Source: a phage. Taken from it: a DNA stretch of 64,000 bases. Below the pieces are notes generated by a model. The model was not told where the DNA came from and made no database searches. It saw only the letters and a program-made list of their open reading frames with translations. Made by a program: the position numbers and the translations under genes. Location: sequence record PZ452611.1; one strand, written 5' to 3'. Of this stretch, positions 56,721 to 61,920 are shown in pieces (within the stretch, counting starts at the first letter, position 1; each line of letters opens with the position of its first letter).

Positions 56721-56794
56721 ACCAGTAAAAACTTAAATATCTGTACTATAAGGATTCGTATGTTTTATGTTCGCTCTGGAACAGAGGTTAGTAA

Positions 56795-56876
56795 CTGTCC
56801 GTGATACGGACACTACTGTCCGTCACGCGGACACATCTGCCCGTAATACGGACACTAACTGTCCGTGATACGGACA
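56795..56876. repeat. four tandem 21-bp repeats with palindromic core CTGTCCGTGATACGGACAC
   Basis: copies at 56795, 56816, 56837, 56858; GTCCGT/ACGGAC inverted repeat in each. Confidence 0.75.
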
Positions 56877-57363
56877 CATAAAGAATATAACTAAAATAAC
56901 TAAATAATAAAAAATAAAAGATCTAGTACTTATGGTACTAAAGTACATATACTTAACTTATGTAGAATATACTAGATCCTAAGTACCATGTTTTAAATTT
57001 ATTACTTACCATAGGTAGTGTCGGCCCTTCATTGGCACTCGCCTACGAGGGGCGAGATGCCGGGCCTCCGTAGTGCACACATGCAGGTCTGTTAACATGT
57101 GTGGGAGCGAAGCGATAGCGCAGGCCAAAGGCCGAGCACTAATGTGGACCACCGACGAAAGCTTGCCAGCGCCGTAAGGAGTCGGTTGAGAGCCTCCCGC
57201 GCGAGTTTGGATAAAGTTTATGTGTGGAAACGGACAATGAGGCCCCTAAATCGCTCCACAGCCATATAAACTATACCAAGTAAGGCAATCGCACCAGTTT
57301 GATAGAAAAGCTCGTTACAAAGCGATACAGTGAGTTTTTCTATAACTTGAAGAGGAGGCAGCT

Positions 57364-57942
57364 ATGAGTCCACGCAAAGATGACCGTGAAAAGATTGCAA
57401 AACGTTATCAGAATGAAGAACAGATGGAGAAAACTTTCAAGTGGAAGCCAGGTTTCCAGCGTAATCATTCTAACGCTCGTGATCGTAAGCATCCGGATAA
57501 GTGGTTAACACCGCCAAATGATGGCATGCAGGTTGGTGATGAGAAGGAGCTGTCACCTGGAAAAGATGGCAACTACATTCGCACTAAGGACGCTGGTCCA
57601 AAGGATGACAGCTATCTTGTAGATAAGGTTCTTGATGGTATCAATGTAGATGTTGACACTGCACGAAACCTTTTTCTTGGGTGGTATCGCACAGGTTTTT
57701 TCGACATCAAGGCTATTCGTCGTGTTTGTGATATTAAAAAGTCTGCATATGATGACGACTCGTTACATCGCACCCTGAGACAATATTCAGAAAGATATGG
57801 TCATCCGGTTATCACTCTTGACGATGTTAACGAAGTGATGTATCATGCAGAGGTTGTTGCAGGAAGATTTGGTGATGCATATCTTGATATCCTTTCTGCA
57901 AAGGATGAGGTAATGTTAAATAAGATTTACTATGAACGCTGA
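57364..57942 (+). CDS. hypothetical protein
   Basis: 192 aa, GAGGAGG RBS. Confidence 0.5.
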   Translation: MSPRKDDREKIAKRYQNEEQMEKTFKWKPGFQRNHSNARDRKHPDKWLTPPNDGMQVGDEKELSPGKDGNYIRTKDAGPKDDSYLVDKVLDGINVDVDTARNLFLGWYRTGFFDIKAIRRVCDIKKSAYDDDSLHRTLRQYSERYGHPVITLDDVNEVMYHAEVVAGRFGDAYLDILSAKDEVMLNKIYYER

Positions 57943-58141
57943 GGGGCGATTAATGAACAATCCGGTAGCAAAGAACTGTAATAAATTCAACAAGTCTGCT
58001 ATTCACACTGACAGGAAAAAGAGTTGGTTTCCTGACATTGACGAGGAGCTTGAGAGTTACTTTGAAGATTTAGTCACCAATGCGGATGAGGTTGCGATTA
58101 AAGAATACGCAGACAGGCGAGATAAGGCCGGAATCTGTTGA
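57932..58141 (+). CDS. hypothetical protein
   Basis: 69 aa ORF. Confidence 0.4.
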   Translation: MNAEGRLMNNPVAKNCNKFNKSAIHTDRKKSWFPDIDEELESYFEDLVTNADEVAIKEYADRRDKAGIC

Positions 58142-58217
58142 CAAAAATAATGTTACCTGATAAGATCTGCAATATGATGTGATACAATTTTAACTTACGA
58201 GGTCTACAGGTAATGCT

Positions 58218-58460
58218 ATGTTTAAGGTTAAGCTCGTTTTTCGTTCCATGAATGAGGATTATTTAGAAGATGAAGGTGAATTTCGTGCACTGGATGATGC
58301 AATAGATTTTGCCAACGACTTAGCTTGTATGAATACGGGTTATGGGCTATGCTGTTGGGATGGTGGTGTTCAGATCGGTGATAGCAAGATCTTCTACTTC
58401 TACCCTGAGCCTGATAACAAACAAATTAAGTATGTTTTATTTATTTGTGCTTTACAATGA
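58218..58460 (+). CDS. hypothetical protein
   Basis: 80 aa ORF. Confidence 0.4.
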   Translation: MFKVKLVFRSMNEDYLEDEGEFRALDDAIDFANDLACMNTGYGLCCWDGGVQIGDSKIFYFYPEPDNKQIKYVLFICALQ

Positions 58461-58747
58461 GGTTGTTTTCGTGTATCATGATGAATATCCAATTTAAAGA
58501 TGAATTTGATGGCTTTATCTCCGGATGCTTTGAAACAGGGTTCGGAGAAGGCTGAGTTCCCCTTAGAGGGCTTGATAGTGCACCACACTTAAAATGGTAG
58601 GGGCAGCCAGCACATGACGATGTGACCCCAGCCAACCTGTAATAAGGTCGAGCCAAAGTGCGGTAATGGGCTCTGGTAACCCACTTGTTGGGTCTTGCTG
58701 GTCCAGGACGCTGGACAAGTCGCAGGGAATACCACCCTGCGGCGAAC

Positions 58748-58776
58748 TTGACAATCAGTATTTGCTATGATAAAAT
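58748..58776 (+). promoter_or_regulatory. sigma70-like promoter TTGACA-N17-TAAAAT
   Basis: upstream of gene 58805 with RBS GGAGGAAAC. Confidence 0.5.
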
Positions 58777-58804
58777 CCACCTATCACGTGATAATGGAGG
58801 AAAC

Positions 58805-59143
58805 ATGGCGGATACAACTAAAAAGCGTCGCCGTAGAGGCAGACCTCTGAAAGAGGAGTCCAACGCCATTCAGCTAGAGAAGAACATCCTTGATATGAAG
58901 GAATCTTTTATAGCGATGGTTCCAGAAGCTCACAAAGTTTTAAGAGAGCTGATGTTGGACCCGAAAACCAAACAAAATATTCGTCAAAGCATTGCAGAGT
59001 ATGTTCTTGATAAGGCAGACCGAATGCAGGAAGAATATGATGAGATGTTTGGTGAAGAGGAAGAGGTGGTAGTGGAAGAGGCTGAAAAACCAGCACCTTT
59101 TATGCCATTTACTACAGAAATACAGCCTGTTAGCAATAGCTAA
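58805..59143 (+). CDS. hypothetical protein with Lys/Arg-rich N-terminus
   Basis: start at MADTTKKRRRRGRP (track 58685). Confidence 0.5.
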   Translation: MADTTKKRRRRGRPLKEESNAIQLEKNILDMKESFIAMVPEAHKVLRELMLDPKTKQNIRQSIAEYVLDKADRMQEEYDEMFGEEEEVVVEEAEKPAPFMPFTTEIQPVSNS

Positions 59144-59239
59144 AATATTTTCTTGACAAACTTTGCTTAACAGTGTAATATTGTAAACATGGTCTCCCAC
59201 CTTTTCTGGCGGCTAAGGTGTAAAAGAAAGCCACCCAGT

Positions 59240-59314
59240 GCCCTGTTAGCTTAGTGGATAAAGCAGCGGCCTTCTAAGCCGTTGACACTGGTTCGAGTCC
59301 AGTACGGGGTGCCA
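59240..59314 (+). tRNA. tRNA-Arg (anticodon TCT)
   Basis: hand-folded cloverleaf: 7 bp acceptor with two G-U pairs, anticodon loop CTTCTAA, T-loop TTCGAGT, CCA encoded. Confidence 0.75.
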
Positions 59315-59708: not shown

Positions 59709-59805
59709 GCTAGGTAAGCCCTTTGGCAAGGGCGAGGATTTTTAATCCTGAAAATAGACGAGGTAGTCGTTGAATACATAGGTGGTTCGATTCCATCACC
59801 TAGCA
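59709..59805 (+). tRNA. aberrant tRNA-like element (possible tRNA-Lys TTT-like with about 30 nt extra arm)
   Basis: perfect acceptor GCTAGGT/ACCTAGC, canonical D-arm and T-arm (GGTGGTTCGATTCCATC), anticodon-like loop TTTTTAA, but 30 nt insertion between anticodon and T arms. Confidence 0.35.
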
Positions 59806-59812
59806 CCTTTTT

Positions 59813-61156: not shown

Positions 61157-61584
61157 TGTCTAAGATTTACGGACCGTGTTCTGAAAAGCAGAAGATGATC
61201 CTCGAAAACGATGCAGATATCTTGGTAATCGGCGGTGCAGCAGGGTCTGGCAAGTCGTTCCTCTTGCAGTTGATGCCACTTAAAATTATTGATGACCCCC
61301 ACAGCTCTGTGGTTATGTTCCGAAGAACAACCCCACAGTTGGAAGGTGAGGGTGGGCTATGGCCTAAAGCAGTAGCTATTTATAGTGATCTGCCTGAAAA
61401 CATTAAGCCAAAGTTTAGAGAGAAGGATCATAAGTTCATTTTTCCACGGTTTGATCCGAACACTGGCAAGTGGGATAGAAGCAAAAAGGGAGCTGTTGTA
61501 AAATACTGCCACATGGAGTATGTACAAGATAAGCTTAACCATCAGGGGCTTGAGTACACCATGGTTTGCTTCGATGAGGGTTAA
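61156..61584 (+). CDS. terminase large subunit, exon 1 (ATPase N-terminus)
   Basis: Walker A GGAAGSGKS, Walker B-like CFDE; frame closes at TAA inside putative intron. Confidence 0.6.
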   Translation: MSKIYGPCSEKQKMILENDADILVIGGAAGSGKSFLLQLMPLKIIDDPHSSVVMFRRTTPQLEGEGGLWPKAVAIYSDLPENIKPKFREKDHKFIFPRFDPNTGKWDRSKKGAVVKYCHMEYVQDKLNHQGLEYTMVCFDEG

Positions 61585-61587
61585 TTT

Positions 61588-61920
61588 GTAGCTCTCGTAA
61601 AACCTCCCTAATTGCGGGGAAATCTTTATTATTGACACCACCAACCTGTTATGGTAACATAATAGAGGCTTCGAAGAGAGATCGAAGGTATGGTAACAGT
61701 GTGTTAATTTAGATAATCCGCAGCGAAGCATCCGAGAGGATGAACGTTCAACGACTAGTCGAAAGACGTAGAATCAAGCGATTCGAAACGGGAGGGTAAG
61801 CGATTGTTGTCGCTTATAAGATATAGTCTGGTCTGCATGGAGACATGCAGCTGCCTGAGAATGGCGGGGCAAGACTAGCGACCTTGCCTGAACATAAACG
61901 ACACAATTCGAATGGGAGCA
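61588..61920 (+). mobile_element. group-I-like intron 1 (no ORF), boundaries approximate
   Basis: ORF-free insert between terminase frames; shares AATTGCGGGGAAATC and ATAGTCTGGTCTGCATGGAGACATGCAGC blocks with second insert. Confidence 0.5.

Follow-up and report, generated by a model that had tools for sequence, protein, structure and literature searches.

A structured RNA upstream of the tRNA cluster of Escherichia phage rV5 belongs to a widespread, uncatalogued family of phage RNAs

Introduction

What does a stretch of phage DNA specify when it is rich in GC, carries only short open reading frames (ORFs) that overlap one another in several frames, and lies just ahead of a cluster of tRNA genes? 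This question is raised by positions 58470-58790 of sequence record PZ452611.1, whose 64,000 nucleotides (nt) were analysed as a whole and are called the window below. An earlier note, made from the letters of the sequence, had proposed that this interval encodes a structured non-coding RNA (ncRNA). Record comparison and blastn identify the source of the region as Escherichia phage rV5 (Vequintavirus), at 100% identity. Here we show that the stretch ~58485-58745 codes not for protein but for a structured RNA, on the + strand, and that its central 78 nt (58600-58677) are a member of a widespread phage RNA family that is absent from catalogues.

Results

The interval is flanked by gp071 (58218-58460) upstream and by ORF74 (58805-59143) downstream, and ARAGORN places seven clustered tRNA genes from 59240 onward, ~500 nt downstream of it. 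The GC-rich island with its overlapping ORFs was borne out, and the three sequence strings quoted for it by the earlier note were all found in place: in 150-nt windows, GC content is 0.52-0.58 across 58525-58749 compared with ~0.33-0.44 in the flanks, and the ORFs of the interval, found on both strands and mutually overlapping, span 30-71 amino acids (aa) only. Over 58540-58745 these GC values stand against a background of ~0.40. None of the ORFs of the GC-rich part matches a Pfam or PHROGs family. Relatives more than 97% identical to rV5 carry indels of +1 and +3 nt at 58672-58676, so that every ORF crossing that point would be frameshifted, and a divergent rV5-like clade retains none of the interval's reading frames. 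The earlier note had named a conserved coding frame with homologues as the observation that would contradict its proposal, and no such frame was found in the GC-rich part. The sole ORF of the interval with a PHROG match (phrog_6828, E=3.5e-9) is a small candidate at 58445-58555 on the + strand, of 36 aa from a TTG or 25 aa from the ATG at 58478, which is situated at the AT-rich 5' end and not in the GC-rich RNA core. It is shortened to 8 codons (MKDEFDGF and a stop) in the divergent rV5-like clade and its last codons display non-conservative G/V/D variation; its coding status is uncertain.

A blastn search with 58400-58850 matched 805 phage records, of which 119 were rV5-like and aligned over the full length, the remaining matches being confined to 58628-58670 at 90-97% identity. 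Some 700 T4-like phages have unannotated sequence 90-97% identical to a 41-nt core at 58631-58671. Carriers comprise T4-like phages, Phapecoctavirus, Winklervirus, Karamvirus, phage Ivi, KpCHEMY26-like phages and the Pseudomonas KIL phages, and a degenerate pattern of the core was found at 37 IMG/VR loci and at ~26 genuine metagenome loci. A looser pattern intended for distant members, GGTCNAGCCNNAGNGCGGTAA, added only KIL1, plus chance matches in coding DNA. We built a covariance model from the helices P2 and P3 and the core, described below, using 41 columns (a 31-nt core and five flanking bases per side). This model scores 55-68 bits in every lineage, the Pseudomonas phage included, and finds a single copy in the 64-kb window, at 58631-58671 (67.9 bits, E=1e-20); each genome carries one copy, or two in tandem. 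The core is conserved far better than the neighbouring proteins: Vs.8 proteins are 37-45% identical between T4-like genera, whilst the core adjacent to their gene is essentially unchanged.

Cellular genomes gave a very different picture. Among 185,579 bacterial and archaeal species, each represented by one genome, the core pattern matched twice, once by chance and once as a weak partial match (23.5 bits) in a metagenome-assembled genome of Ectothiorhodospiraceae, and blastn returned zero matches among 5,426 complete E. coli genomes. From the near-absence from bacterial genomes, together with the lack of any match in E. coli, it follows that the element belongs to virulent phages and not to their hosts or to prophages.

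The earlier note had advised a search of Rfam, and this yielded an uncatalogued family in place of a known one. Using the 4227 models of Rfam 15, a scan of the window at the gathering thresholds returned only tRNAs and a group I intron, with nothing at the element; scans at E<=10 of 56800-59250, of 58480-58750, of the T4 element and of four loci from other lineages had, at the element, only a chance microRNA match (E=9.5). No tRNA was found at 58470-58790 by ARAGORN or by the Rfam tRNA model. Literature searches with core strings retrieved no paper, and those on vs.8, T4 small RNAs, Vequintavirus transcriptomes and phage structured RNAs retrieved nothing relevant; a large survey listing 10,006 phage RNA candidates (PMC10690425) may include the motif unnamed. 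The RNA is new only in that none of the catalogued families accommodates it.

All members share one order of parts. The outer stem of stem-loop SL1, unconstrained in sequence, opens the structure and is followed by a loop strand of 3-8 nt, placed in the 5' internal loop or the hairpin loop of SL1, an optional inner hairpin and the SL1 closing strand; then come P2, the core, the second P2 strand, a linker of 0-8 nt and, last, a strand complementary to the SL1 loop strand, which forms a pseudoknot. In rV5, SL1 occupies 58600-58629 on the + strand, its outer stem pairing GGGG (58600-58603) with CCCC (58626-58629), its 5' internal loop bearing the pseudoknot strand GCCAG (58606-58610) and its inner hairpin pairing CACAU (58611-58615) with AUGUG (58620-58624). 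This layout is identical in every class, with 22 different outer-stem sequences, and both stems covary between rV5 and the divergent clade, the outer from GGGG/CCCC to GGAAC/GUUCC and the inner from CACAU/AUGUG to CUACG/CGUAG. P2, the closing helix (58630-58672, + strand), pairs AGCC (58630-58633) with GGCU (58669-58672) and adds an A.G and an A-U pair beside the core; across 41 sequences, its three innermost Watson-Crick pairs have all changed on both sides. The near-invariant 31-nt core that it encloses (58636-58666) has the consensus CCUGUAAnAAGGUCrAGCCnnAGyGCGGUAA or, with fewer degenerate positions, CCUGUAAUAAGGUCGAGCCnAAGyGCGGUAA. The pseudoknot is completed by the 3' strand CUGGU (58673-58677, + strand), which pairs with 58606-58610; close relatives have 1 or 3 nt more at the linker (58672-58673) and keep or extend this pairing.

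Within the core, hairpin P3 (58635-58648, + strand; A-CCU / AGG-U) carries the hexaloop GUAAUA (58639-58644), in which positions 3-5 vary and the G, the U and the last A are fixed. P3 is invariant among enterobacterial phages and shows a compensatory change, CCA/UGG, in Pseudomonas phage KIL1. A short putative P4 (58652-58661, + strand) would pair G58652 with C58661 and C58653 with G58660 around the loop CAAAGU. Its bases never vary in the canonical core, and its covariation comes from divergent second copies in Karamvirus-like phages (L030 9138-9176, L071 480-518, L024 5096-5134, and L029), copies that have a shorter UCGA junction and, at the P4 position, a stable CGC-looped hairpin in the covarying forms GCC-CGC-GGC, GUC-CGC-GAC and GAC-CGC-GUC. 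From the compensation of P3 in KIL1 and the P4 hairpin of the variant copies it follows that the core is a small three-way junction of P2, P3 and the short putative P4, whose loops and junction strands (UCGA, 58648-58651; GGUAA, 58662-58666) are almost invariant. Of the 41 columns of the model alignment 23 do not vary, set among covarying P2, SL1 and pseudoknot pairs. The overall fold is a nested double pseudoknot that packs this junction against a helical stack.

To this cross-family unit rV5 adds a 5' module and three 3' hairpins that lie outside it. The 5' module (CCCCUUAGAGGGCUUGAUAGUGCACC..., 58556-58604, + strand) contains hairpins at 58568-58581 and 58582-58585/58595-58598 and was not found beyond rV5-like phages; the divergent clade carries a second copy of it 3' of the core. 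A helix predicted by RNAalifold from 8 rV5-like sequences, 58556-58561/58600-58604, encloses the module and competes with the SL1 outer stem, and its pairs 58557-58603 and 58559-58602 have changed on one or both sides between the two rV5 clades. The rV5-specific 3' hairpins (58680-58741, + strand) are CCCA/UGGG at 58680-58692, GUCCAG/CUGGAC at 58701-58716 and CGCAGGG/CCCUGCG at 58721-58741. The close relative L068 has lost the hairpin at 58680-58692, a natural deletion showing that one of the three is dispensable, and the 3' hairpins of the divergent clade differ from those of rV5.

Statistical support was sought in two alignments. The first, curated and N-padded, holds 41 distinct sequences in which helices 1 and 2 were fitted by our own search; 98% of its cells are paired, 16 of 22 pairs have changed on both sides, and none of 500 shuffles matched it. 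Several results count against the structure as drawn. As helices 1 and 2 were placed by our search, their pairing in this alignment is partly there by construction. When 52 nt of upstream sequence were searched freely for their best pairing to the 16-nt tail, an element's own tail was not separated from foreign ones (12.3 vs 11.7). Folding of single sequences was no more stable than that of shuffles, with z = -1.2 for the + strand of rV5 and z = +0.3 for T4, and such thermodynamics was uninformative on either strand.

Owing to the first of these points, we made a second alignment from 16 natural T4-like sequences by MAFFT alone, without fitting. Here, of the five pairs of the pseudoknot (columns 23-27/119-123), four have changed on both sides, and pair 25-121 occurs in all four Watson-Crick types (CG 8, UA 4, AU 3, GC 1). 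The covariation score of the pseudoknot is 0.315 vs 0.102 when shuffled, a value reached by none of 500 shuffles, and the signal collapses once the partners are slid by one to three columns; three sequences lack both members of one inner-stem pair. When the complementarity search was limited to homologous positions, own tails scored 11.5 and foreign tails 4.7, with 9% of foreign tails doing as well. Given that the unconstrained control fails, the pseudoknot rests on positional covariation and on this position-restricted comparison. Across classes its strands form 25 distinct pairs, all complementary. G-U pairs at several positions fit the + strand only, and the orientation of the element is always that of the neighbouring genes. 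The idea of a structured ncRNA thus stood on conservation across phage families and on covarying helices, the pseudoknot among them; the ORF pattern and GC content that the earlier note had offered as its grounds do not carry it, since folding energy is ordinary and the support is comparative. That a selected RNA structure exists here we regard as close to certain.

The promoter that the earlier note had read at 58748, TTGACA-N17-TAAAAT (58748-58776, + strand), matches the consensus at 11 of 12 positions and is labelled P74 in the GenBank record of rV5; it serves ORF74 and the tRNA cluster, lies outside the RNA fold and marks the downstream limit of the element. At the other end, a promoter-like site, TTTACA-N17-TATCAT (58451-58479, + strand; a 10/12 consensus match only), overlaps both gp071, at its end, and the small ORF, at its beginning, and from this candidate the RNA would start near 58485. 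The divergent rV5-like clade has a near-consensus TTGACA-N17-TATACT with an extended -10 immediately 5' of the element, and its RNA would span ~170 nt up to the next promoter. No promoter of its own was found for the element in KIL1, the 46-kb class or phiWec190, where it comes after tRNAs. The next -35 box lies at most ~15 nt past the RNA end in rV5, its divergent clade and Ivi, and the next promoter of phiWec190 ~270 nt downstream of the element; in all four, a promoter stands between the element and the next gene, which places the element outside the leader made from that promoter. The last 3' hairpin of the rV5 RNA lacks a U-tract, and no terminator/anti-terminator pair was found at the rV5 element.

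In five lineages the element lies on the same strand as tRNA genes, within or beside their clusters. It stands between tRNAs, inside the cluster, in Phapecoctavirus phiWec190 and in Pseudomonas syringae phage KIL1, directly after a tRNA at locus L075, 200-360 nt before tRNAs in the 46-kb class and 0.7-1.2 kb after them in the KpCHEMY26-like Klebsiella phages of 70 kb; in rV5-like phages, one small gene separates it from the tRNA cluster. The 45-kb phage Ivi has it after the lysis genes. In T4 and its relatives, it follows immediately on the upstream gene (denV in T4) and precedes vs.8, and Serratia CBH8 and Enterobacter Entb_43 carry it at the equivalent position. In these T4-like phages it fills the gap from the upstream stop codon to the first AUG of the vs.8 leader, with the pseudoknot 3' strand 3-20 nt before that AUG. 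A constant 5'-leader position ahead of related genes was found for the T4-like phages and vs.8 only; elsewhere the element is flanked by tRNAs or lies before a promoter. No protein family is common to its neighbourhood across the classes, Vs.8 being restricted to T4-like phages and homologues of ORF74 to Vequintavirinae.

The reference record of T4 places the element beneath the annotated 5' end of vs.8, where the first 37 annotated codons (L002 2491-2601; NC_000866 64802-64912) cover it and find no support in any protein family. PHROGs match Vs.8 from residue 40 onward and other T4-like records begin the gene at a downstream ATG, which is probably the true start. In Vs.8 itself, GGRQSGKS forms a Walker A motif. 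Between the element and vs.8 (L002 2555-2600 and its T4-like equivalents) stands another conserved segment, GYGCCAHGGAAYGGCCC, whose nucleotides are kept and over which the reading frame differs between genera, so that it is probably a hairpin and not a peptide. We also considered a conserved upstream ORF in T4-like leaders (GCCAnGGAAnGGCCC) and rejected it: its nucleotides are kept and its frame is not, so that here, too, a further hairpin is more probable than a peptide.

Discussion

What the RNA does is a harder question than what it is. For rV5 we favour a trans-acting binding module or decoy, to which we assign a probability of roughly 40%. The variable scaffold would present the invariant core, and the core would bind something common to Enterobacteria and Pseudomonas, be it a macromolecule from the host's tRNA or translation apparatus or a small molecule of nucleotide type. 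A shared binding target is suggested by three features taken together, namely a core better conserved than the neighbouring proteins, the lack of any co-occurring phage protein and the absence from bacterial genomes. Likewise, a 31-base core that stays near-constant in at least seven unrelated lineages, while adjacent proteins drift to 37% identity, points to a strong, shared selective target. In rV5 the product would be an RNA, either discrete or 3'-terminal, that is made just ahead of the tRNA operon and works as RNA instead of switching the gene that follows. The module of T4-like phages, near the start codon of the vs.8 leader, may in addition gate translation.

Other observations tell against this explanation. 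The predicted ends of the RNA rest solely on promoter-like sites, and no terminator-like site was found on the + strand across 57900-59300. The position before a start codon in T4-like phages and the occurrence of tandem copies look like a cis-acting, riboswitch-like arrangement, and the helix that competes with SL1 in rV5-like phages hints at switching.

A cis-acting role is accordingly the main rival, best supported in the T4-like phages and by the helix rivalling SL1, and we consider it possible whilst doubting it. The element might act as an aptamer in the manner of a riboswitch, its pseudoknot masking or freeing the start region of the following ORF; alternatively, it might signal processing, stability or antitermination of polycistronic tRNA and mRNA transcripts. 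In all T4-like classes it fills the gap before the leader AUG, with the real Vs.8 starting downstream; the tandem copies with a variant core in Karamvirus-like phages recall tandem riboswitches; helix 58556-58561/58600-58604 covaries between the rV5 clades; a three-way junction whose junction bases do not vary is characteristic of aptamers; and a place inside tRNA operons would suit a processing signal. Small aptamers, such as those with purine-type junctions or the preQ1-II-type pseudoknot with its embedded hairpin, resemble it further in their compact junction, in invariant junction and loop bases set among variable helices, in a pseudoknot reaching the next ORF start (in T4-like phages) and in occasional tandem copies. 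However, it matches no riboswitch model and often lies outside leaders. The genes downstream are unrelated across classes, tRNA genes flank it on both sides in Phapecoctavirus and KIL, it directly follows a tRNA at L075, and in rV5, the divergent clade, Ivi and phiWec190 a promoter cuts it off from the next gene. No terminator or anti-terminator pair was found, and it would be unusual for a riboswitch class to occur in virulent phages only and to be missing from 185,579 bacterial species. An improbable variant of RNA-level action is a self-cleaving ribozyme by which transcripts of tRNA clusters and leaders would be trimmed. HDV-like (hepatitis delta virus-like) ribozymes have been reported next to phage tRNA genes, and the element shares that association. 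It also shares their nested double-pseudoknot strand order, in which an outer stem encloses the pseudoknot 5' strand and a hairpin, followed by P2 with the core and then by the 3' strand. Its conserved bases are nevertheless in the wrong domain, one whose counterpart in HDV-like ribozymes, P4, is dispensable. Where those ribozymes form their active site, in P3/L3, the element has a hairpin of unconstrained sequence and length, which Ivi lacks; the counterpart of J4/2, the place of the catalytic C, is in rV5-like phages a variable linker of 0-3 nt; neither L3/P1.1 nor a J4/2 cytosine is conserved, and no Rfam ribozyme model matches even at E<=10.

Three further readings were weighed. ORF74, directly downstream in rV5, encodes 112 aa with a basic N terminus (MADTTKKRRRRGRP...) and an acidic C terminus, and its homologues lie inside the tRNA clusters of other Vequintavirinae, so the RNA might be a nut/boxB-like site on which this arginine-rich N terminus loads an antitermination factor for the rV5-like tRNA operon. 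P3, with its purine-rich loop (CCU-GUAAUA-AGG; CCU-GUAAAA-AGG in other classes), would then stand for lambda boxB, GCCCUGAAAAAGGGC, which it resembles. We hold this to be very improbable: the RNA occurs in at least six lineages other than the Vequintavirinae to which ORF74 homologues are restricted, the ORF74-bearing phages PVP-SE1, BIS47, CR3 and 4MG have no core within 1.5 kb, the loop has 6 nt and not 5, no boxA is evident (it was not searched for formally), and the RGRP motif of the protein is equally of the AT-hook type that binds DNA. Hardly more than a trace of credence goes to an element acting as DNA (a hot spot for recombination or homing, or a protein-binding site) or to recently exchanged DNA that has no RNA function. 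Lateral transfer could explain a core 90-97% identical in otherwise unrelated phages that have hosts in common, and in rV5, the divergent clade and Ivi the end of the RNA abuts the -35 box of a promoter. Against that, complementarity is kept at fixed positions in flanks that have fully diverged, G-U pairs work on one strand only, the orientation always follows the surrounding genes, conservation extends to a Pseudomonas phage with a compensatory change, and one copy, or two in tandem, per genome is not a dispersed repeat. Least credible of all, to the point of being nearly dismissed, is that a genuine gene exists among the overlapping short ORFs, in line with the annotation of several GenBank records. 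Many rV5-like records place up to three hypothetical proteins beneath the interval, and the small 5' ORF does match phrog_6828; yet the ORFs of the GC-rich part lack family matches, near-identical relatives carry the frameshifting +1 and +3 indels, the divergent clade keeps no ORF, and the N-terminal extension of T4 vs.8 over the element has no family support.

Returning to a trans-acting module, a more specific form of it, which we think unlikely, is an RNA decoy against host defence. It would be either an aptamer for an immune nucleotide (a cyclic di- or tri-nucleotide, or an ADP-ribose-derived one) or a mimic of tRNA or ribosome that diverts a nuclease or sensor. A decoy would explain the confinement to virulent phages and the place among tRNA genes, as well as a core that stays invariant in phages of both Enterobacteria and Pseudomonas and has no protein partner of phage origin. 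It would also explain why the T4 element heads a gene string that includes vs.4, and why some phages have second copies with an altered core. The product of vs.4 sequesters cyclic GMP-AMP and counters CBASS, the cyclic oligonucleotide-based anti-phage signalling system (PMC10097602).

Among known phage RNAs, the closest in setting are rnaC and rnaD of T4 (species 1 and 2), small stable RNAs that are likewise co-transcribed with tRNAs, at the end of the tRNA operon. They show no resemblance in sequence or structure on reading, the core model finds nothing in the T4 tRNA region (L080), and the T4 copy of the new element is ~6 kb away, in the vs.8 leader; rnaC and rnaD are limited to T4 relatives, whereas the new family spans at least seven phage lineages. 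GOLLD and ROOL are also phage-associated structured RNAs without a known function that often lie near tRNA genes, but they exceed the new RNA 5-8-fold in size, come from other host groups and have Rfam entries, with no match here. Apparent short likenesses to the 16S 530 loop (GCGGUAAU), the GUAAUA loop of 23S, the UGUAAU of the signal recognition particle Alu domain, tmRNA, the GGUAA of RNase P and the cobalamin box were set aside, because they extend over at most 8 nt and are within chance for targets the size of rRNA.

In T4, among the most thoroughly mapped of phage genomes, the element has been hidden beneath N-terminal codons of vs.8 that lack support, and about a thousand phage records in GenBank either leave it unannotated or mis-annotate it as small ORFs. 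Recognising it would correct the annotation of many therapeutic-phage genomes, as rV5-like and T4-like phages are common in cocktails. Identifying its target would add a new class of phage ncRNA effector or a new class of aptamer, and the family, being small (~80-100 nt) and easily mutated in T4, is directly testable.

Additional features of the locus

ORF74 (58805-59143) carries an N-terminal KKRRRRGRP motif, arginine-rich and AT-hook-like, and an acidic tail, and PVP-SE1, CR3 and 4MG retain homologues of it inside their tRNA clusters (loci L081-L084). Within the tRNA cluster of rV5, ARAGORN reports a 99-nt tRNA-like gene at 59709-59807 with a four-base anticodon (atcc); this gene scores 35.5 bits with the tRNA model of Rfam and is missing from the rV5 record, which has just six tRNAs. 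Further downstream, a group I intron (61572-61850; Rfam, 84.9 bits) lies within the large terminase gene, which is annotated as a three-part join.

On the upstream side, several inverted-repeat units (CTGTCCGTGATACGGACAC) followed by 120 nt at 24% GC occupy 56780-57000, just downstream of gp075, an annotated replication initiation protein; this stretch looks like an iteron-type replication origin. It is followed by a first GC-rich island (57000-57290), where GC content rises to 0.61 and the rV5 record annotates ORF78 (57099-57269). This island was found in Vequintavirus only (119 records, 84-100% identity, with an 18-nt indel), has no Rfam match and may be a second, lineage-specific RNA. Between the two islands, 57932-58141 encodes a small protein that matches DUF7230 (E=2e-8).

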